64,000 nt of DNA from a bacterium (GTDB taxonomy: Bacteria; Patescibacteriota; Minisyncoccia; JACQLN01): the NCBI GenBank assembly GCA_030697795.1, contig JAUYOV010000001.1, positions 24,486 to 88,485 on the forward strand, in the 5' to 3' direction. A program made the translations under genes and the position numbers. This document shows positions 231-60,750 of the stretch, piece by piece. The notes beneath the pieces are model-generated. The model saw only the letters and a program-made list of their open reading frames with translations. It did not search any database and was not told where the DNA came from. The stretch's first letter is position 1. Each line of letters begins with the position of its first letter.

Positions 231-812
231 TTAGAAAATATTCCCAACTCTTTCTTTTGCGTCTAATTCTTTAATCCTTTCGTTAAGATAATTATTATCT
301 ATTTGATAGATGTTTAAAAAGTTATGAATGTCCTCTATATCTTTTTTACCTTCTTCTGGCCCACGTTGCAATAAGGCTTTTATAAGCAAAACATCTTCTG
401 GAGGTAATAAATACAGATTAACCCCTTTATATTCAAACTGAATTCTTTTTTGCTTAATATTTTCAGTAATGCCAAATTTATAGTGCTTATCAAGATTAAA
501 TTCTAAATGGCTAGTAAATTGTATAGAATGATTTCCTTCGGGATTAGAGTTTCTAACCGGTCCAGCTTTCGATGTGTGTGTATACGATTCTATGTTAAAC
601 AACTGGTCAACAATGTCGTGTTCGCCGTTTGGTAAAAAAATATCTACATCATCCGGAATTCTTTTGTTACCCAGCAAGAAAAGGCAGCCACTACCGCCTA
701 TCATCCAATTTATAGAAGCCTTATTTAATTTTTCCGCAACAGAAACCAACATCGGAAACCTAAGCATAGATTCTTCTAGCTTTTTAATATCCATATTTAA
801 ATTATACAGCAC
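231..812 (-). CDS. Pol-beta-superfamily nucleotidyltransferase domain protein
   Basis: GGSGCLFLLG...DDVDIF matches the GS-x(9-13)-DxD nucleotidyltransferase signature; 193 aa; lies immediately upstream of the wHTH gene on the same strand. Confidence 0.5.
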   Translation of the reverse strand: MLYNLNMDIKKLEESMLRFPMLVSVAEKLNKASINWMIGGSGCLFLLGNKRIPDDVDIFLPNGEHDIVDQLFNIESYTHTSKAGPVRNSNPEGNHSIQFTSHLEFNLDKHYKFGITENIKQKRIQFEYKGVNLYLLPPEDVLLIKALLQRGPEEGKKDIEDIHNFLNIYQIDNNYLNERIKELDAKERVGNIF

Positions 813-1060: not shown

Positions 1061-1450
1061 ATGAATAAAAGATTTAACGAATGGATTAACTTAAAAGAAT
1101 CTTTAGACAAACAAAGTAACCGTCCGCCGCTTGTTTCAAAAGGAGATATTTGGTGGGTAAGTGTTGGAGAAAATGTTGGATCGGAAATCAGTGGTAAAGA
1201 TACTTTATTTTCACGTCCGGCAATTGTTCTTAAAAAACTTGCTCATGGTTTTTATTTTGTAATTCCAACAACAACTAGACCAAGAAAAGGAACTTGGTAT
1301 GTGGATTTTAAACATCAATCTATAGATATGGTCGCTTGTCTCCATCAAGCGCGTGCAATTGATTATCGCAGGTTATCTTCTAAGCTTGGAACGCTTGATG
1401 ACGAAGATTTCGCTAGAGTCAGAAAAGGATTCCAAGAACTCTATATATAA
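1061..1450 (+). CDS. mazF: MazF/PemK-family endoribonuclease toxin
   Basis: GDIWWVSVGENVGSEISGKDTLFSRPAIVL matches the PemK/MazF N-terminal signature; 129 aa; a hairpin terminator follows at 1455..1485; no adjacent antitoxin ORF. Confidence 0.7.
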   Translation: MNKRFNEWINLKESLDKQSNRPPLVSKGDIWWVSVGENVGSEISGKDTLFSRPAIVLKKLAHGFYFVIPTTTRPRKGTWYVDFKHQSIDMVACLHQARAIDYRRLSSKLGTLDDEDFARVRKGFQELYI

Positions 1451-1581: not shown

Positions 1582-1727
1582 ATATATTAAACCACAATAT
1601 TAACATACTGACATACTTGAGATTGTTGGTATGTTGTTAACCTAGGATCGAGCTGAGGTTAGTGCCCAGAAATAAAAATCAAATTCCCCCTGCTTCTTTA
1701 AACGGACTGAATGGGAAGTTAGACATG
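1582..1727. repeat. dispersed intergenic repeat, module A (hairpin, 13-bp stem) plus module B (copy 2)
   Basis: Module A aacatactgacatacttgagattgttggtatgtt recurs at 5783..5836 and in-frame at 19881..19917; module B recurs at 921..980. Confidence 0.65.
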
Positions 1728-1733
1728 GAAGAT

Positions 1734-1934
1734 TTATAAAGAATCTTTTTTAATTTTATCTTTTATCAAGCCCTCTTTTTGTTCTTTTGTTAATAATCCC
1801 CTTGCTTCATCTAATAAGTTTTTGCAAAACTCCCAGTCTTTTTTTAGCTTTGTTATTTCTTTGTTTCTTTCTTTAATTTCGATCAACGCCACTACACTTA
1901 TAAGAATAATAGAAATTAGTAATGATATTGTCAT
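1734..1934 (-). CDS. small single-TM hypothetical protein
   Basis: 66-aa ORF with a hydrophobic N-terminus; last gene of the minus-strand operon 4464->1734. Confidence 0.3.
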   Translation of the reverse strand: MTISLLISIILISVVALIEIKERNKEITKLKKDWEFCKNLLDEARGLLTKEQKEGLIKDKIKKDSL

Positions 1935-2036
1935 AAGGTTATTTGTCTAATGGCATATTAATAAATTGATCCCGAAGGGTTACTATTCGTTTTTTATTTT
2001 TTACAGTTTACTGGTTGAAATTGATGGGGCATAAAA

Positions 2037-2984
2037 TTATTTTTCTAATTTTTGTATGTATTTTGGAAATATTTGTTTAAATATATCCATTTGACCGATT
2101 GCCCATCGAATAAGCTCATTGATTTGGTTATCTGTCATTTTCTTAATATTTGAAGGCATTTTTTTATAAACCACTATTCTTGATGCTCGTTTTTCTGATA
2201 ATTCTTCCCAATTCAAATCAGAAAATTTTATATCTATTTCTGTTTGATATTTTTTCAATACTTGGAAATAGGCTTTTACTTCTTCCTTGTCCCCCGTATC
2301 AATATAAAGTTCGGTATCAAAACGATTATCTCCTCGAAATGCCCAGGCAAATTTAAATCCTGTTTTTCCAGCTCCAAATGCGATCCAACTTGAAGGACGT
2401 GCAGTTAGGTGTCCCCATTCTGGTTTTACTTTTTCATATTCAGAGACAAGACGAGTAAAAAATTGTAAATACTTTTGATGTCTCTCATCAATCTGCTCTG
2501 TGGCTTTTTTTACTTCCTTACCCCACGTATTCGGTTCAACCACCGATTTAAAACTTAAAGCCGGATTACTTTCATCTATAGTAATTGCAGAAACCTCAAC
2601 TCCAAAAAAAGACACATCGCTTGCGTTTTCGTTTAACCACTCAAGAGCTTTTTGATGCTCCTCTCGTATTTTTTCTGATACCCATACCACATATCTCGCG
2701 CCTACACCTGAAGCGTATGTGATAATTTTTCCAAGATGATCATGATTAGTTTGGTTAAATTGATTTTCAATAATTACTTTATCTTCAGAATTTGCCTCTT
2801 TCCCTATAAGATCGCAGTTAAAATCTCCAATTCTCTCTTCTCTTTTGACGTCTATAATTTCAACTCCAATTGCTTCAGATAACTGGTCAATATTGCTTTC
2901 GAGCCATGGAGTAAAATCTGACGCTTCACCAGGGAAAACATCTCTCAAATCTACTTTTTTAATTTTGCCTAGATTTTTTTTCAT
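2037..2984 (-). CDS. DUF4268-type protein with N-terminal PD-(D/E)xK/NucS-like nuclease domain
   Basis: N-terminus VDLRDVFPGEASDFTPWLESNIDQL is the hallmark start of DUF4268-family proteins; 315 aa. Confidence 0.5.
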   Translation of the reverse strand: MKKNLGKIKKVDLRDVFPGEASDFTPWLESNIDQLSEAIGVEIIDVKREERIGDFNCDLIGKEANSEDKVIIENQFNQTNHDHLGKIITYASGVGARYVVWVSEKIREEHQKALEWLNENASDVSFFGVEVSAITIDESNPALSFKSVVEPNTWGKEVKKATEQIDERHQKYLQFFTRLVSEYEKVKPEWGHLTARPSSWIAFGAGKTGFKFAWAFRGDNRFDTELYIDTGDKEEVKAYFQVLKKYQTEIDIKFSDLNWEELSEKRASRIVVYKKMPSNIKKMTDNQINELIRWAIGQMDIFKQIFPKYIQKLEK

Positions 2985-3065
2985 ATTTTTTATTTAATTA
3001 AATCATCAACGCTAACTCCAAATATAAAACCAGCAAGGATTGTTCTTGGTAAAGATTTTTTACTT

Positions 3066-3887
3066 CTAGCGAGTAATAAGAACTATAATCTCCAGCTCTT
3101 TACCACCCATACTAATTTTACTCTCTATGCCTGACTTAAAAGCATATTCGTTATCTATTGCGTGGCTTGGATCAAAAATAACAAATATTATTCTATAGCA
3201 AGAACTCTGATTACCGTATGAAATAATATCCTCTTTGCATTGTTTTTGAATTTCTTTTTCCTTACCTTTATCTGAAATATATTTTGTCTCTATAAAAAGT
3301 CCAAGTTCTTCAATAGTAAAATCAATTGTGCTTGAAGCGGTACCAACTTTTTTATTTGGGTCTTCATATTGTAGAGTAGGAAATGGTCCTTTCAACATGA
3401 CATACAATATATCTTGAATATCATACTCGTCTCTGACTTCTAAGGAATTCTTTCCTTTCCTACGATGCTTAAGACGACTAATCACATCTGACAATCTATT
3501 CAAGATATTTATCACTTGATGGACCGAAGGGAGGGTATTTCCAACTAAAGGGATCCCTGTTTTTATTTTTGTTCTTGCACTCATCGCAAGACCTCGGAGT
3601 TTCAAAATACTTTTTGTTTTTATAGTATTTTGGAAAGACCCAATAAATCCATCAATAAATAAATCCCCATCATGCAGTTTACTTTTTGGATCAAATTCAT
3701 CACTTAAATCTCCAGTAGTGGAAATTCCAAGTTGTTTAAATATTTCTTCTATAATCCCCCAAATATTCTGTATATTACCTAGGTGTTCCTCTATTTCTTC
3801 TATATTTCCTTCGCTCCTTTTTTTCAACCAGTTTGAGATGTTATTGATGAAACTATCAAGGTATTTAATTTGGGATCGTTTATCCAT
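3066..3887 (-). CDS. hypothetical protein, C-terminal half with a possible PD-(D/E)xK-like motif
   Basis: 273 aa; IDFTIEELGLFIETK resembles a D..E.K nuclease core; overlaps the upstream Bro-N gene by 8 nt, implying an operon. Confidence 0.35.
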   Translation of the reverse strand: MDKRSQIKYLDSFINNISNWLKKRSEGNIEEIEEHLGNIQNIWGIIEEIFKQLGISTTGDLSDEFDPKSKLHDGDLFIDGFIGSFQNTIKTKSILKLRGLAMSARTKIKTGIPLVGNTLPSVHQVINILNRLSDVISRLKHRRKGKNSLEVRDEYDIQDILYVMLKGPFPTLQYEDPNKKVGTASSTIDFTIEELGLFIETKYISDKGKEKEIQKQCKEDIISYGNQSSCYRIIFVIFDPSHAIDNEYAFKSGIESKISMGGKELEIIVLITR

Positions 3888-4464
3888 ATATTATTTTATA
3901 ATCTTTTACGCTTCTATCTGCCCAGGCTTTTGTAATCTCGTCGGTTAGTATCGCATATTCTAATCCTTCTTTCATTTCCCGTTCTTGCCATTCATCGGTT
4001 AATTCTTTGCGTACTTCAATACTTTTTAAGCGTTGATTTATCCATTCTTTGCTGTATCCTTTTTGCAAATATGTTTTCATCGCCCTATTAAAAGCTAGTT
4101 CTGGATCTGCTGTTTCTTCTATCCGTTCATAGCCAACCTTAGCCAGCCATAATTTAAAAGGTTCTGCTTTTGGGGAAGGGATTGATTGGACTACACGGAG
4201 CAAATCTTCTGTGGAAAAACAGTCTGTTGCATATTTCTTTCCATCAGAAGCTACAAATTTCAGTTGTACGATTTTCTCGTACACCTCACCGCCTTCATCT
4301 TTCAACTTATTCTTTAAATCACTCCAATATCGTTTCGGAATAGTAGAATCAACTAAGACTCCTATTACATCAATAACAGAGAAATACCAAGTTTCTTTTT
4401 TTTCATTATAAAAACGGCGTACTTGCTTTTGGTTAAATAAGACTATTGAATTTGATTTTTTCAT
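3880..4464 (-). CDS. Bro-N (KilA-N/DinD-like) domain protein
   Basis: WYFSVIDVIGVLVDS...KRYWSDLKNKL...KLWLAKVGYERIEE resembles Bro-N/DinD family proteins common on phages and MGEs; 194 aa. Confidence 0.5.
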   Translation of the reverse strand: MKKSNSIVLFNQKQVRRFYNEKKETWYFSVIDVIGVLVDSTIPKRYWSDLKNKLKDEGGEVYEKIVQLKFVASDGKKYATDCFSTEDLLRVVQSIPSPKAEPFKLWLAKVGYERIEETADPELAFNRAMKTYLQKGYSKEWINQRLKSIEVRKELTDEWQEREMKEGLEYAILTDEITKAWADRSVKDYKIIYG

Positions 4465-4504
4465 AATGTAGTACTTGATTTAAAGTATACCAATCAAAAA
4501 TAGT

Positions 4505-5779
4505 TTAACAACTATTCCCCGCCACATAGCCAGTTGTCCAGCAAAGCTGGAGGCTGTAGCCGCCGGAGGGGCGGTTTATGTTTAATACATCGCCCACCAA
4601 ATAAAGCTGGGGCAATATGCGCGATTGCATCGTTTTAAAATCAACCTCGCTTAATATTACTCCACCACTAGAAACCGCCGCTTTATCTTTGCCTAATAAT
4701 CCATCTACATTTAAAATAACAGCTTTTAAAAGCGAAACAAGTGTTTTGCGTTCGGCTGTTTTTACACTGTGGTTAAATGTCTCGCCGTCTATGACGGAAA
4801 GCATAAGGATAGGTTCTACCATGGCTGGTTTAACCAGCATAGAAAGTGTGTTTTTAATTTTTTTATTGCTTTGTTCGGTTAAAATGGTTTGGAGTTTTTG
4901 TTTTAAAGCAGATTGGTCTAGGTTTGGGAATAAATCGAGTTTTATGGTTACATCCGCTTTTTCGGCGTAATCGGCACCTTCGCCTGTGTTTAAAAGTTCG
5001 CCAACTTCGCTACTCATATTTAAAACAGTTGGCCCGCTTATGCCAACGTGTGTAAACAAAAGTTTGCCTTCTTTTGCAAAACATTTCTCTATTCCTTTAT
5101 ATACAGTCATTTTTACGTTATCCAAAGTTACACCGGCTAATCTTTTTACCCATTCGTCTTTAAGTGTAATTGGTACAAGCGCTACATCGTTTTCTTTTAC
5201 AGTGTGCCCCAAATCTTTAAGCCATTTAAAACCTTCGCCGGTAGAACCTGTTTCTGGGCGAGATGTTCCGCCAGTTGCCACAATGCATTTGTGGGCGTGG
5301 ATTATAGATTTATCGGCAAGGGTTATAGAAAATTGTTTTAAATTTTGATCAAAACTTATTTTTGTAACTGCGGAATTAGTTTTAACTTTTACTCCTGCAT
5401 TTTTTATATATTTAACTAAAACATTTAAAACAGTTTCAGCTTTGTTAGAAACCGGAAACATTCTGCCTTCGTTTTCTTCTTTCATCTGCATACCTTTTTT
5501 ACCAAAAAAAACTATTGTTTCGGTTACGCCAAATTGAGAAAACGCCGAAAACAAAAATTTATCGCTTTCTTTATATTTAGCTAATATTTCGCGGATATTG
5601 GGCTTGTTGTTGGTTACGTTGCACCTGCCACCGCCTGTAATTAAAAGTTTTTTGCCAAGAGTTTGGTTTTTTTCTAACAGTAAAACGCTTTTGTCTTTTT
5701 CGGCAGCTCGCCCAGCCGCCATCATACCAGCCGGCCCTCCGCCGATTACTACTACATCAATTGGTTCATTAGATTTCAT
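4505..5779 (-). CDS. HI0933-family (BaiN-like) NAD(P)/FAD-dependent oxidoreductase
   Basis: VVVIGGGPAGMMAAGRAA dinucleotide fold, GGGRCNVTN motif, C-terminal GYSLQLCWTTG; 424 aa. Confidence 0.8.
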   Translation of the reverse strand: MKSNEPIDVVVIGGGPAGMMAAGRAAEKDKSVLLLEKNQTLGKKLLITGGGRCNVTNNKPNIREILAKYKESDKFLFSAFSQFGVTETIVFFGKKGMQMKEENEGRMFPVSNKAETVLNVLVKYIKNAGVKVKTNSAVTKISFDQNLKQFSITLADKSIIHAHKCIVATGGTSRPETGSTGEGFKWLKDLGHTVKENDVALVPITLKDEWVKRLAGVTLDNVKMTVYKGIEKCFAKEGKLLFTHVGISGPTVLNMSSEVGELLNTGEGADYAEKADVTIKLDLFPNLDQSALKQKLQTILTEQSNKKIKNTLSMLVKPAMVEPILMLSVIDGETFNHSVKTAERKTLVSLLKAVILNVDGLLGKDKAAVSSGGVILSEVDFKTMQSRILPQLYLVGDVLNINRPSGGYSLQLCWTTGYVAGNSC

Positions 5780-5782
5780 TAA

Positions 5783-5836
5783 ATATATTAAACCACAATA
5801 TTAACATACTGACATACTTGAGATTGTTGGTATGTT
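5783..5836. repeat. dispersed intergenic repeat, module A only (copy 3)
   Basis: atatattaaaccacaatattaacatactgacatacttgagattgttggtatgtt fills the gap between the HI0933 gene start and the ABC-F stop. Confidence 0.65.
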
Positions 5837-28800: not shown

Positions 28801-29133
28801 TTATAGCCGATCTTTTACCATACGAATCAAATCATACTCATTGTGATATATACCGTGACGAGAGAAAACAAGGATTTTGTATGATTCTCCCTTAATTAAT
28901 TGAAAAATAACTCTATATCCTTTTGATTTGCCAATATTTTCTCGCAAAGGAATAACTCTTCCTTTATATATTTTTAACCCACCAAACCCAGGAAACAGAT
29001 CAATCCCGGGTGTTTCTTTAATACCCTTTAGGCAAAAAAGACGTTCCCATGCTTCTAACGATTCTTGTGGAGTTGGAAACCGTCGCAAGTTTCTGAAATC
29101 TTTTTCAATATCATTATGCCGAGACAACTCCAT
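28801..29133 (-). CDS. RelE/ParE-superfamily toxin-like protein
   Basis: 110 aa; KGYRVIFQLIKGESYKILVFSRHGIY resembles the RelE/ParE core; 12 nt downstream of the Panacea-domain gene. Confidence 0.5.
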   Translation of the reverse strand: MELSRHNDIEKDFRNLRRFPTPQESLEAWERLFCLKGIKETPGIDLFPGFGGLKIYKGRVIPLRENIGKSKGYRVIFQLIKGESYKILVFSRHGIYHNEYDLIRMVKDRL

Positions 29134-29145
29134 GAATATTCTTGA

Positions 29146-29658
29146 TCAAATATTTGCCATCTCGCCGTATTTGTTACGATAGAGAGATAAATTATAATCA
29201 ATAACCTCATTTGGCTTAGTAGCAATCCACGGAGCTTCACCGTGACTGGCATTTTTCATTTCTGATCCAGTAAATTTATCCCACTTAACGGCAATTTCTT
29301 CAAGCATTAACAATTCTTCTTTTTCAAAAACATTTACATCAAAATCAGCCACTAAAACTTCGATGTGCTGTTGATCATTATATCCATTTCCAATTTTTCG
29401 TTTAGTGATTTTTATCTCTTGCCCATCCATCTCTTTAAGAATTTTTTCTGCCATACGAGGTACAGGTCCGTTTTCAAAACGAAGATATTCATCACCAGTA
29501 ACTGAACGGCCATATTTTTCAAAGAAATCAAAGTCTAGATAATATAAAAGCTTCATCATTTTGAGCTTACCCAAAGTGCCATTCTGAATCCTTTTTGCAA
29601 AGAAAATAATGGCGTTTCTATACTTTTTTTGATTGATTTTAGTTACATTTTTAACCAT
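29146..29658 (-). CDS. Panacea (DUF4065, SocA-like) domain antitoxin-type protein
   Basis: KMMKLLYYLDFDFFEKYGRSVTGDEYLRFENGPVP matches the Panacea/SocA domain. Confidence 0.6.
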   Translation of the reverse strand: MVKNVTKINQKKYRNAIIFFAKRIQNGTLGKLKMMKLLYYLDFDFFEKYGRSVTGDEYLRFENGPVPRMAEKILKEMDGQEIKITKRKIGNGYNDQQHIEVLVADFDVNVFEKEELLMLEEIAVKWDKFTGSEMKNASHGEAPWIATKPNEVIDYNLSLYRNKYGEMANI

Positions 29659-29715
29659 ACATATATAATACGCCTTTCTCTTAAATTCTACAACTTAGGG
29701 CAAACAATGACTTCT

Positions 29716-29853
29716 TCTACGCTACTACTCCAAAACGGCGGAGCTAACGCCATAAAAGATTTTAAAGGAAGTACCACGCAGTATAACTGGCTAAATGCCT
29801 ACGAACCCACAGCAAAAATTGGGTATTCTATATTTATGTATAAAATAGATTAA
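29716..29853 (+). pseudogene. orphan duplicate of the 3' end of the GT39 gene 26891..28609
   Basis: Encodes STLLLQNGGANAIKDFKGSTTQYNWLNAYEPTAKIGYSIFMYKID*, compared with the GT39 C-terminus ATLLQNGRATATKGFQGDTTFYKWLNDYEPVTKIGYSIFVFKID*. Confidence 0.55.
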
Positions 29854-29911
29854 CCACACACCTAGCAAGGATGGTCATTGCTAGGTGAGGAATGGCTTTT
29901 ACTAATTTAAA

Positions 29912-30343
29912 CTATTTTCTGTAACTTTTTATTAAACTCAAACACTCTCCATAAGCTTCTGCCTTTCCACCAATAAACTCATTTAGTCCATATTCTTCTA
30001 TTTTGTTGCTCTCTGGTAATTTTTCCCTGTAATCCTTTCTATAACTTTTTACTAATTCTGCAACGTGTAGCTCTAAAGATTTATTGGTTATTTTTTCAAT
30101 AAAACCCCTTGCTATTATTAATTCAATCGTCTCCTCATATAAATCTTGCAAGTTTTCCCAGAGTTGAAATGTTTGGTATTTGTCATCTTCTTGAAGATTC
30201 TCCCACTCATCCGGTTCAATTTCCACAAAATTATCATCCTCTTCAGCATATTCATGGTTCATTACGAGGAATGGAAAATAAAAATCGGGATGCTGGTGCA
30301 AATATTTTAATATTTGAATTGCAAGTTCTCTACTTATGTCCAT
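29912..30343 (-). CDS. hypothetical acidic protein
   Basis: 143-aa ORF, no recognised domain. Confidence 0.3.
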   Translation of the reverse strand: MDISRELAIQILKYLHQHPDFYFPFLVMNHEYAEEDDNFVEIEPDEWENLQEDDKYQTFQLWENLQDLYEETIELIIARGFIEKITNKSLELHVAELVKSYRKDYREKLPESNKIEEYGLNEFIGGKAEAYGECLSLIKSYRK

Positions 30344-30377
30344 ACTCGATCTTTGATCAAGTATTAGGTAAAGTCAA

Positions 30378-31394
30378 CTATCTAACTCTGTATACACCTC
30401 TACCCATAAATTCAAGATAATTTTTGTCACGTAAAACCTGTAATTGTTGACGAATTTTATCCTTATGGTTTGGGCTACTTTCTGCCACAAGAACTGTAAG
30501 TGCGGTAAGCGCGGAAGGAGTTATCTTTTTAGTATCTAGAATATTCGCTTGTCTTAAAAACCAAGCAAACGCAAAAGCACCCGATCGTTTATTGCCATCG
30601 ATAAATGGGTGATCTTTAACTATAAAATATAACAAATGTGCCGCTTTTTCTTCTGCGCTTTCATATAATTCCTTACCGCCAAAAGTCTGCATTACATTAC
30701 CAACAATTCCTGCCACAGAACCCTTGCTTCTTTCCGTACCAAAAATATTAGTGGCTTCTTTTTTATGAATAAGCTCTGCTTTTAGTTTATTTAAACTATC
30801 GGTAATTTTCTCTGCAGTTAACTCAACTTTCTTTTTTGTTAATTTTCCTTTTGGTAAAATGCCTTTGTCGTAAGCATCAAGCGATAACCAAGTATCCGCA
30901 AAAAGCGATATAAGTTCAATGGCGTCTCCCGCGTTCACACTAGACCCTACAGGTAAAATCTTTTTAATGTTTTCTACAATGCTTAAAAACTGTTCGTAAT
31001 TTTTAGCAATTCGGTTTTTGTTTATAGCAAAACCATCTACAACATAGCTTTTTAGTGTTTTAGTTGCCCACTGGCGAAAAATAGTTGCTTTTTTGCTATT
31101 AACCCGATAACCAACCGATAAAATCATATCAAGATTATAGAATTGCACTTGATATATTTTTCCATCGTCGGCAGTATGTGCAAATTTTGCACATACTGAA
31201 GTAGCATCTAATTCTTTATCTTTTAGGATATTTCTAATATGCTTTGTCACAACCGAACGTTCAGCCTGAAAAACCTCGGATATTTGAGCCTGCGTAGCCC
31301 AGATAGTTTCGTGCGTAAAATCACCCCGAAACTCAATAGCTCCGCTTTTTGCTTGATAAATCACTAATTCCTTATTTTTCTTTATATTCTTCAT
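30378..31394 (-). CDS. RhuM-like N-terminal domain fused to a Fic/Doc domain
   Basis: N-terminus LVIYQAKSGAIEFRGD...ETIWATQAQISEVF is RhuM-like; C-terminus HPFIDGNKRSG is the Fic/Doc motif. Confidence 0.7.
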   Translation of the reverse strand: MKNIKKNKELVIYQAKSGAIEFRGDFTHETIWATQAQISEVFQAERSVVTKHIRNILKDKELDATSVCAKFAHTADDGKIYQVQFYNLDMILSVGYRVNSKKATIFRQWATKTLKSYVVDGFAINKNRIAKNYEQFLSIVENIKKILPVGSSVNAGDAIELISLFADTWLSLDAYDKGILPKGKLTKKKVELTAEKITDSLNKLKAELIHKKEATNIFGTERSKGSVAGIVGNVMQTFGGKELYESAEEKAAHLLYFIVKDHPFIDGNKRSGAFAFAWFLRQANILDTKKITPSALTALTVLVAESSPNHKDKIRQQLQVLRDKNYLEFMGRGVYRVR

Positions 31395-57542: not shown

Positions 57543-57815
57543 CTAGGAGCGGGATGAGCCATCCGATAAAAATTCTTTTAACAATCTTATTCGTTCTTTA
57601 TAGCCAAATAGACTCTTGAGAAACTTTTCTCTTCTCATCGCTTCGGATCGTGACTTATATATTTCACTTTTGATGAATAATAATGGTCGCCTGTTTTTCG
57701 TAGATTTAACCTTGCCACCAAAATGCTCTTTGAGTCTAATGTCGATTTTACTTGTTTGCCCAATGTAAAGTTTTTTATCTTTTTGGCTATAAAGAATATA
57801 TACAAAATAGTTCAT
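57543..57815 (-). CDS. GIY-YIG nuclease-domain protein
   Basis: MNYFVYILYSQKDKKLYIGQTSKIDIRLKEH...NRRPLLFIKSEIYKSRSEAMRREKFLK is a GIY-YIG core; start set to the internal Met because the track ORF runs into the tRNA. Confidence 0.6.
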   Translation of the reverse strand: MNYFVYILYSQKDKKLYIGQTSKIDIRLKEHFGGKVKSTKNRRPLLFIKSEIYKSRSEAMRREKFLKSLFGYKERIRLLKEFLSDGSSRS

Positions 57816-57826
57816 AAAATACTTTG

Positions 57827-57898
57827 CTCCGGTGGTAGGATTCGAACCTACAACCATCGCCTTAACAGGGCGCCGCTCTACCGTTGAGCTACACCGGA
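57827..57898 (-). tRNA. tRNA-Asn (anticodon GUU), CCA not encoded
   Basis: Reverse complement folds: acceptor TCCGGTG/CACCGGA, D-arm GCTC-AACGGTA-GAGC, anticodon loop CTGTTAA, T-arm GTAGG-TTCGAAT-CCTAC, discriminator G. Confidence 0.8.
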
Positions 57899-60285: not shown

Positions 60286-60750
60286 ATGCCTATAGTTAAA
60301 ACCCAAAAAAAGGATGAGACGCTATCTCTTTCTAAGATCAGCACTAAACATCAGGTGACTATTCCCCAAGAAGTGTTTGAAGAATTACAACTAAAAATTG
60401 GTGACTTGGTAGAAATAGTAGCCGAAAGAGGTAAAGCCACCCTCGTTCCCAAGAGGGTGGTTTCCCGTCCACTGGCATCTAAACTCTCGGCCCGGGAACA
60501 AAAAACTCTCCAGTCTGCCCAAAAAAAGATTGAAGCCATCAATAAAAACATCCTTACCTCAAAAGGGCTGACGCCAGCTGAAGCGGATGTAGCAGTCAAG
60601 ATTGGACTGATTAACCATGATCAAAAATACTGGTGGCTGGAGGAATGGCAAGAAGGTGAGCGCGAGGTAGAGCGCGATATCAAGGCAGGCCGGGTCTCTG
60701 GACCGTTTGAGACCGCAGAGAATCTGCTCGCGCACCTCCACCAGCTATGA
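60286..60750 (+). CDS. AbrB/MazE/SpoVT-type swapped-hairpin DNA-binding antitoxin with long C-terminal extension
   Basis: ISTKHQVTIPQEVFEELQLKIGDLVEI is the AbrB/MazE fold signature; overlaps the downstream toxin by 4 nt. Confidence 0.55.
   Translation: MPIVKTQKKDETLSLSKISTKHQVTIPQEVFEELQLKIGDLVEIVAERGKATLVPKRVVSRPLASKLSAREQKTLQSAQKKIEAINKNILTSKGLTPAEADVAVKIGLINHDQKYWWLEEWQEGEREVERDIKAGRVSGPFETAENLLAHLHQL

Follow-up and report, generated by a model that had tools for sequence, protein, structure and literature searches.

PDC-S11 from E. coli ECOR34 has been characterised and renamed Madara: a single-protein defence that restricts T4 carrying glucosyl-hydroxymethylcytosine and other Tevenvirinae, but not unmodified T4 (bioRxiv 10.64898/2026.09.05.749240). 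Its N-terminal domain is a NucS-like PD-(D/E)xK nuclease, in which the substitution D63A abolishes defence, and its C-terminal domain has been called EVE-like (bioRxiv 10.64898/2026.09.05.749240). MdgA, a DUF4268 protein, degrades modified T4 DNA in vitro. A nuclease of another family, PF18742, is found in EcbAgaN of the BPAN (long-B Argonaute) systems: its C-terminal domain is a toxic non-specific DNase, its N-terminal domain autoinhibits it, and the inhibition ends when a target-bound prokaryotic Argonaute (pAgo) assembles the nuclease into an octamer (PMC13535254). PF18742 also serves as an alternative effector in Detocs. For the DinD-like Bro-N proteins (PADLOC candidate PDC-S13; PHROG 15286) we found no experimental validation of PDC-S13 in the literature, and nothing relevant on PDC-S13 or on DinD-like Bro-N proteins beside restriction-modification systems. 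Here we analyse a locus with relatives of these proteins, located at positions 1734-4464 of a 64,000-nucleotide stretch (64 kb, hereafter ‘the window’) of contig JAUYOV010000001.1, a part of a patescibacterial metagenome-assembled genome (MAG).

The locus contains four open reading frames (ORFs) on the minus strand, called here g1 to g4 in the order of reading: g1, a Bro-N gene fragment (3880-4464, 194 amino acids); g2, a gene for a two-domain nuclease (3066-3887, 273 amino acids); g3, a gene for a DUF4268 nuclease (2037-2984, 315 amino acids); and g4, an orphan ORF (1734-1934, 66 amino acids). We consider it probable (about 0.65) that g1-g4 form a horizontally acquired, low-GC (guanine-plus-cytosine) defence islet of independently mobile, co-oriented modules, and not a four-component machine. 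An earlier note on this DNA, made from its letters alone, had described the locus as a four-gene operon and a possible defence or mobile-element module. The four minus-strand frames were confirmed by the ORF list, and positions 1606-4733 of the window were reproduced at 100% identity by a Logan assembly made independently from the same sample and sequencing run; thus, neither the gene order nor the junctions are assembly artefacts. The GC content is 0.26 in g4, 0.325 in g2, 0.339 in g3 and 0.347 in g1, compared with 0.375 for the entire window, which argues for a foreign origin of g1-g4; the adjacent HI0933-like and ABC-F genes have 0.385 (0.38-0.39). As to the operon, the co-orientation of the genes stands, but an operon is unproven: g2 and g3 are separated by 81 nucleotides and g3 and g4 by 102 nucleotides, and neither a consensus promoter scan nor a terminator scan of the locus rose above the shuffled background.

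The modular reading is supported by co-occurrence. We collected 257 loci (numbered with the prefix L below, the present one being L001), comprising 125 with g1 relatives, 120 with the g2 nuclease domain and 15 with g3 relatives. Among them, g1 together with g2, and g2 together with g3, occur only in L001, that is, in this sample. In 80 genomes with a g1 relative, a g2 relative was never found nearby, and a DUF4268 domain was found nearby once (L095). With zero co-occurrence outside this sample, a conserved four-gene system is ruled out. The earlier note had itself named a lack of co-location in other genomes as grounds for refutation; since the combination is confined to this sample, a four-gene system is refuted on that note's own terms.

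Residues 172-310 of g3 match DUF4268 (PF14088; Pfam, E 1.1e-25), and all four PADLOC PDC-S11 profiles match the protein, the best of them with E 1.6e-100 and with residues 1-312 aligned to profile positions 1-314 of 318. Residues D58, E73, N74, Q75, H81 and H83 do not vary among 27 relatives, the most distant of them 43% identical, and in an AlphaFold2 model (mean predicted local distance difference test, pLDDT, 84) D58 and E73/Q75 lie on beta-strands 2-3 of a PD-(D/E)xK-type core. By these profile matches, g3 can firmly be assigned to the PDC-S11/Madara family. It shares with Madara the order of domains, PD-(D/E)xK at the N-terminus and DUF4268 at the C-terminus, as well as the invariant acidic motif, in which D58 would be the counterpart of Madara D63. 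It differs from Madara in being known from sequence alone, in a low-GC MAG. As in the group of Madara and the related DUF4268 nucleases MdgA and MdgB, g3-type genes are found singly, either alone or next to restriction-modification genes of Type I/III-like character. The neighbours of g3 relatives differ: one relative follows a methyltransferase-helicase pair and an unrelated 267-residue protein, another follows hsdM-hsdS in an island with a DpnII-like restriction endonuclease, and others lie among hypothetical genes on plasmids. Thus, the g3 family has no obligatory partner. The 267-residue protein upstream of the closest g3 relative was considered as a g2 homologue and rejected, as no BLASTP similarity was detected.

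The product of g2 consists of an N-terminal helical bundle (approximately residues 1-110) and a C-terminal PD-(D/E)xK domain (approximately residues 122-272), according to the PF18742 match and an AlphaFold2 model (pLDDT 79). Residues 125-268 match PF18742 (REase_DpnII-MboI) with E 2e-30 and contain the core D189...E200-T-K202, which bears out the C-terminal D..E.K core noticed earlier. The only sequence match in PDB is EcbAgaN (23wq), with D189, E200 and K202 aligned to D298, E309 and K311; PADLOC Aga_Helical-REase models match the C-terminal part only, and phmmer and PADLOC alignments cover no more than residues ~107-256. Residues E154, D189, E200 and K202 are invariant in 16 full-length relatives retrieved from a search of 5.8 billion clusters. 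No significant structural match to the N-terminal bundle was found with Foldseek. In an exhaustive profile search of 1.84 billion representatives, 2,753 carry the g2 nuclease domain, while the full architecture is limited to just four 50%-identity clusters, with scores dropping from >400 to ~135 bits. The N-termini of other PF18742 proteins are diverse, mostly unannotated and occasionally receiver, AbiTii or STAND domains; no Bro-N fusion was seen in the best 145 of the 2,753 domain matches.

Seven genomic contexts of full-length g2 relatives were available. In four of them the gene starts between -8 and +5 nucleotides from the stop codon of an unrelated upstream gene: a 65-residue ORF (L002), an N6/N4 methyltransferase gene (L007, where a ResIII helicase gene follows the g2 relative), a DUF4145 gene, and an AAA_15 ATPase gene interrupted by an IS1595 transposase (L096). 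These coupled relatives are found at positions 6001 of L002, L007 and L008 and 5001 of L096; the remaining three are solo. None of the seven contexts contains a Bro-N or DUF4268 neighbour.

Compared with EcbAgaN, g2 has a C-terminal PD-(D/E)xK domain that belongs to the same Pfam family and carries the corresponding D...E-x-K motif, and a two-domain layout in which the N-terminal domain could autoinhibit a toxic nuclease. In contrast, its helical N-terminal domain of ~110 residues has no similarity to the 220-residue N-terminal domain of AgaN, and no Argonaute gene adjoins g2 or its full-length relatives. No Argonaute was found among g1, the HI0933-like gene and the g3 and g4 flanks, the rest of the 64-kb window having been only ORF-mapped and not profile-searched for PIWI. 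A role of g2 as a part of a pAgo system was rejected on account of its flanks, those of its full-length relatives and its unrelated N-terminal domain. With Detocs-type and other PF18742 systems g2 shares an effector domain placed behind variable N-terminal or upstream sensor modules; unlike in Detocs, there is no two-component signalling gene at the locus and no receiver domain in g2.

The first gene of the cluster is broken. The product of g1 matches Pfam Bro-N (E 4.5e-9) and PDC-S13 (E 4.6e-92), the latter over profile positions 1-193 of 286 only, and it covers positions 2-190 of 274 in PHROG 15286. It is collinear with 283-residue relatives through ...SVKDYK (residue 190), after which it reads IIYG and stops. 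The Bro-N domain and the conserved helical region (residues 1-190) are thus present, and the full PDC-S13 architecture of ~283 residues is not. The earlier description of g1 as Bro-N/DinD-like holds for the domain, but the truncation had been overlooked. No remnant of the missing ~90 C-terminal residues was found anywhere in the window by tblastn, which rules out their displacement to a place downstream of the cargo. The family is large, with >8,000 matches at 81-93% identity, a usual length of ~283 residues and members in Aminicenantes, Omnitrophica, Planctomycetes, Patescibacteria and other groups. The DNA of g1 and that of an Aminicenantes copy are ~90% identical between a point ~20 nucleotides upstream of the ATG and codon 190 (window positions 3895-4484); beyond both ends of this stretch the sequences are unrelated and the limits are abrupt. 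With thousands of DinD-like Bro-N proteins from many phyla g1 has residues 1-190 in common; it differs from them in lacking the C-terminal ~90 residues, and from its closest relative in lacking RadC and PLD-nuclease neighbours.

Bro-N genes related to g1 are found in varied surroundings. Of the Bro-N copies in the 80 species genomes that have a g1 relative, 72 are long, and the immediate neighbours (65 genomes) are highly diverse, chiefly housekeeping genes with a minority of restriction-modification or defence genes. Tight arrays are seen in the closest clade of g1: RadC, Bro-N and a PLD/NgoFVII-like nuclease in L208 (5001-5852), L209 and L012, and a Bro-N gene of 194 codons, a RadC-methyltransferase, an AlwI restriction endonuclease and a methyltransferase in L009-L011. 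In this clade a restriction-type nuclease gene repeatedly follows 2 nucleotides after the Bro-N gene. In L095 the Bro-N gene is followed by a GmrSD-DUF4268 fusion. Other short Bro-N forms have unrelated genes downstream, some of them housekeeping. The idea that a short Bro-N gene always stands ahead of defence cargo proved only partly true: the short form in L012 is a frameshift, and behind others lie a dehydrogenase gene or unknown genes. We also observed that independent Bro-N truncations cluster within ~10 nucleotides of codons 190-194. Separately, in a Jacksonbacteria MAG (L031, 2139-5390) a Bro-N-like region runs on as an open frame of 1,085 codons, possibly a fusion to a large C-terminal protein.

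The stop codon of g1 and the start of g2 overlap by 8 nucleotides on the minus strand (3880-3887, ATGGATAA), as had been noticed before, and this is where the Bro-N fragment meets the g2 cassette: DNA homology to full-length Bro-N genes stops ~10 nucleotides upstream of the g2 ATG. The conserved first codons of g2, ATG-RAT-ARR, carry a stop in the -1 frame, and a comparable overlap (ATGAATAG) is found in L002, there with the unrelated 65-residue upstream ORF. As the overlap arises from g2's own first codons and recurs in L002, it marks a cassette junction and not an ancient gene pair. At the other end, the 5′ limit of Bro-N homology coincides with the -10 element of a promoter-like site at 4484-4511 (minus strand, read 4511-4484), which lies between the HI0933-like gene and g1 and consists of TTGTTA, a 16-nucleotide spacer and TATACT, with a TG upstream of the -10 element. 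By this consensus match it is a candidate promoter of g1.

The last ORF, g4, encodes a single hydrophobic segment, located at the N-terminus (Kyte-Doolittle mean 2.5 over 19 residues), in agreement with the single transmembrane helix predicted before. It has no family match in Pfam, NCBIfam or PHROG and no relatives in the 257 loci outside the same sample. A small ORF following g3 relatives was compared with it as a possible homologue, and the sequences are unrelated. It may not be a functional gene.

Taken as a defence islet of separate modules, the locus could work as follows. By analogy with E. coli Madara and MdgA, g3 would act alone as a Type IV-like, modification-dependent restriction enzyme, in which DUF4268 would recognise hypermodified phage DNA and the N-terminal PD-(D/E)xK domain (D58, E73-x-Q75) would cut it. 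The g2 gene would be a promoterless effector-nuclease cassette, whose rare N-terminal helical domain may restrain the intact PF18742 domain, as in autoinhibited EcbAgaN, until an infection cue or a partner releases it. This cassette, possibly together with g3 and g4, would have replaced the 3′ third of a transferred Bro-N gene, itself located behind a housekeeping flavoprotein gene. What is left of that gene, the ~590-nucleotide g1 fragment, would now be chiefly an expression platform, providing transcription and coupled translation for g2, and g4 would be an orphan ORF of doubtful significance. The PADLOC profiles to which the earlier note had pointed agree with a defence role, giving PDC-S11 for g3, PDC-S13 for g1 and Aga_Helical-REase for the C-terminal part of g2. 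Together with the PF18742 effector and the low GC content they support that note's placing of a defence or mobile-element module in an island; its four-gene system failed on co-occurrence.

Several observations weigh against this modular reading. The genes g1-g4 all point the same way and no strong terminator separates them, which makes it plausible that they are transcribed together and therefore, to some extent, regulated together. The 190-codon frame of g1 is intact and 93% identical to full-length relatives, and together with the tight g1-g2 coupling this could mean that g1 is still functional. The 2-nucleotide spacing that recurs in g1's own clade is a hint that Bro-N and the nuclease behind it may be linked in function. 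Finally, a Foldseek search with the g3 model returned neither NucS nor EVE/PUA folds in the top 50, the best matches being T3SS-chaperone/YbjN-like folds over the C-terminal half (E 4e-4). While the DUF4268 domain and the PD-(D/E)xK motif of g3 expected from the earlier note are well supported, by the Pfam match and the invariant residues respectively, its NucS label and the EVE-like C-terminal domain of Madara are thus unconfirmed for this protein; the family assignment is firm all the same.

In an alternative reading, g1 (residues 1-190) and g2 form a two-component sensor-effector pair: Bro-N would sense phage DNA or protein and relieve the autoinhibition of g2, as pAgo does for AgaN, with g3 and g4 being bystanders or accessories. 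We regard such a pair as unlikely. The 8-nucleotide overlap and the absence of a separate g2 promoter would suit it, but the overlap is a product of g2's own first codons, and the g1 frame, intact as it is, has been truncated from the normal 283 residues. That g2 relatives are usually coupled to a variable upstream gene, a possible sensor, also speaks for a pair, yet in the 257 loci g2 relatives and Bro-N relatives are nowhere else neighbours, nor is there a Bro-N fusion in the PF18742 matches inspected. Similarly, Bro-N genes of g1's clade directly precede restriction nucleases of different folds (PLD/NgoFVII-like, AlwI, GmrSD), whereas other short Bro-N forms precede unrelated, partly housekeeping genes. 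In a broader version, the g2 family would be a promoterless plug-in nuclease behind varied sensor genes, with the 190-residue Bro-N module as its sensor here; Bro-N would be the conserved 5′ partner, and the downstream nuclease would be swapped by recombination near codons 190-200. This version is distinctly unlikely.

It is improbable that g2 encodes a DpnII/MboI-like Type II restriction endonuclease with sequence specificity, whose methyltransferase would be encoded elsewhere in the genome. The Pfam family name, a size near that of DpnII and MboI, and the L007 relative between an N6/N4 methyltransferase and a ResIII helicase all invite this interpretation. But at E<=0.1 g2 does not match PF04556, the genuine DpnII family, and most g2 relatives have no adjacent methyltransferase. 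None was found in the ORF map of the 64-kb window, whose other ORFs were not profile-searched. GATC is not avoided in the window (161 observed versus 160 expected, ratio 1.00), and these results together rule out a DpnII/MboI GATC enzyme. Other 4-bp palindromes are under-represented across the window (TCGA 0.56, GGCC 0.63, CCGG 0.68), which would fit a Type II enzyme and suggests that restriction acts, or once acted, against these sites. The PF18742 domain, by contrast, is documented as a non-specific effector DNase.

We next turn to the repeats around the cluster. Just downstream of g4 lies repeat unit u2 (1582-1727), composed of repeat A (1582-1635), a spacer and repeat B (1688-1727). A second perfect copy of A (5783-5836, 54/54 identical to 1582-1635) fills the whole interval from the ABC-F stop codon to the HI0933-like start codon. 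The cluster had been described as bounded by A/B repeats; this is correct for the B+A unit after g4, but the second A copy lies beyond the HI0933-like gene, and the two copies delimit a 4.2-kb segment that includes this gene. An older, diverged unit, u1 (A'/B, 821-985), is located on the other side of mazF; its A part is ~80% identical and partly inverted, and B at 1688-1727 is 95% identical to B at 941-980. The identity gradient of A (100% versus ~80%) suggests that cassettes were inserted one after another at a single att-like site next to ABC-F. If so, the HI0933-like gene belongs to the newest segment, which is odd. The A/B units were also considered as attC sites of an integron array or as a known RNA, and both options were rejected: DNA folding of the units as attC-like hairpins was no better than that of shuffled sequences (z-scores from -0.09 to +1.6), and there was no credible Rfam match. 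In a search for an island-free relative, no exact copy of repeat A turned up in JGI metagenomes, nor did we find an empty site; the HI0933-like protein has no record by exact sequence. No integrase was recognised in the window, whose other ORFs were not profile-searched. That the locus is functionless, decaying mobile-element debris left by successive insertions at this att-like site is very doubtful, for although g1 is truncated, g4 is an orphan with a GC content of 0.26, and A/B repeats and a solo mazF occur with no integrase recognised nearby, neither g2 nor g3 is shortened and both keep every catalytic residue that is invariant in their families, and g3 is 81% identical to intact relatives.

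Other features of the window are given for completeness. The MazF/PemK gene noticed earlier next to the cluster is present (1061-1450, plus strand). It has no adjacent antitoxin ORF, and the only MazE/AbrB-like protein of the window (154 amino acids) is encoded 59 kb away, at 60286-60750 (plus strand). This low-GC accessory stretch has a DUF2204/DUF6036 nucleotidyltransferase gene (231-812, minus strand, GC 0.32) at its far end, which may be further island cargo. A second accessory islet (28801-31394, minus strand) contains a SocA/Panacea-domain antitoxin gene (29146-29658), its neighbour encoding 110 amino acids (28801-29133), and a RhuM-Fic-DpnI_C fusion (30378-31394, minus strand); the same type of fusion follows a short Bro-N gene in L052. 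A GIY-YIG nuclease ORF (57543-57857, minus strand) abuts a tRNA-Asn gene (57826-57898, minus strand). Its predicted start overlaps the tRNA, the true start is probably downstream, and the arrangement may be a homing or integration-site feature.

We conclude that the cluster is a real, foreign, defence-related mosaic of known kinds. In it, g3 adds a new member to the Madara/PDC-S11 family, g2 is a known effector nuclease with a rare N-terminus, g1 is a broken PDC-S13 gene, and g4 is an orphan ORF. Through this locus a Madara-type Type IV nuclease is seen in an uncultivated low-GC lineage, as is an orphan effector nuclease resembling AgaN, and the locus is a clear example of the cassette-wise assembly of a defence islet. 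It also draws attention to a Bro-N gene that crosses phyla at ~90% DNA identity, often directly ahead of restriction nucleases. Current understanding is unchanged unless the link between Bro-N and nuclease is functional; if the plug-in arrangement were true, it would represent a new type of modular defence architecture, built of Bro-N and a nuclease. The g2 family, rare and nearly always coupled to an upstream gene of unrelated kind, is a tractable case for asking how one mobile nuclease can be connected to different sensors.

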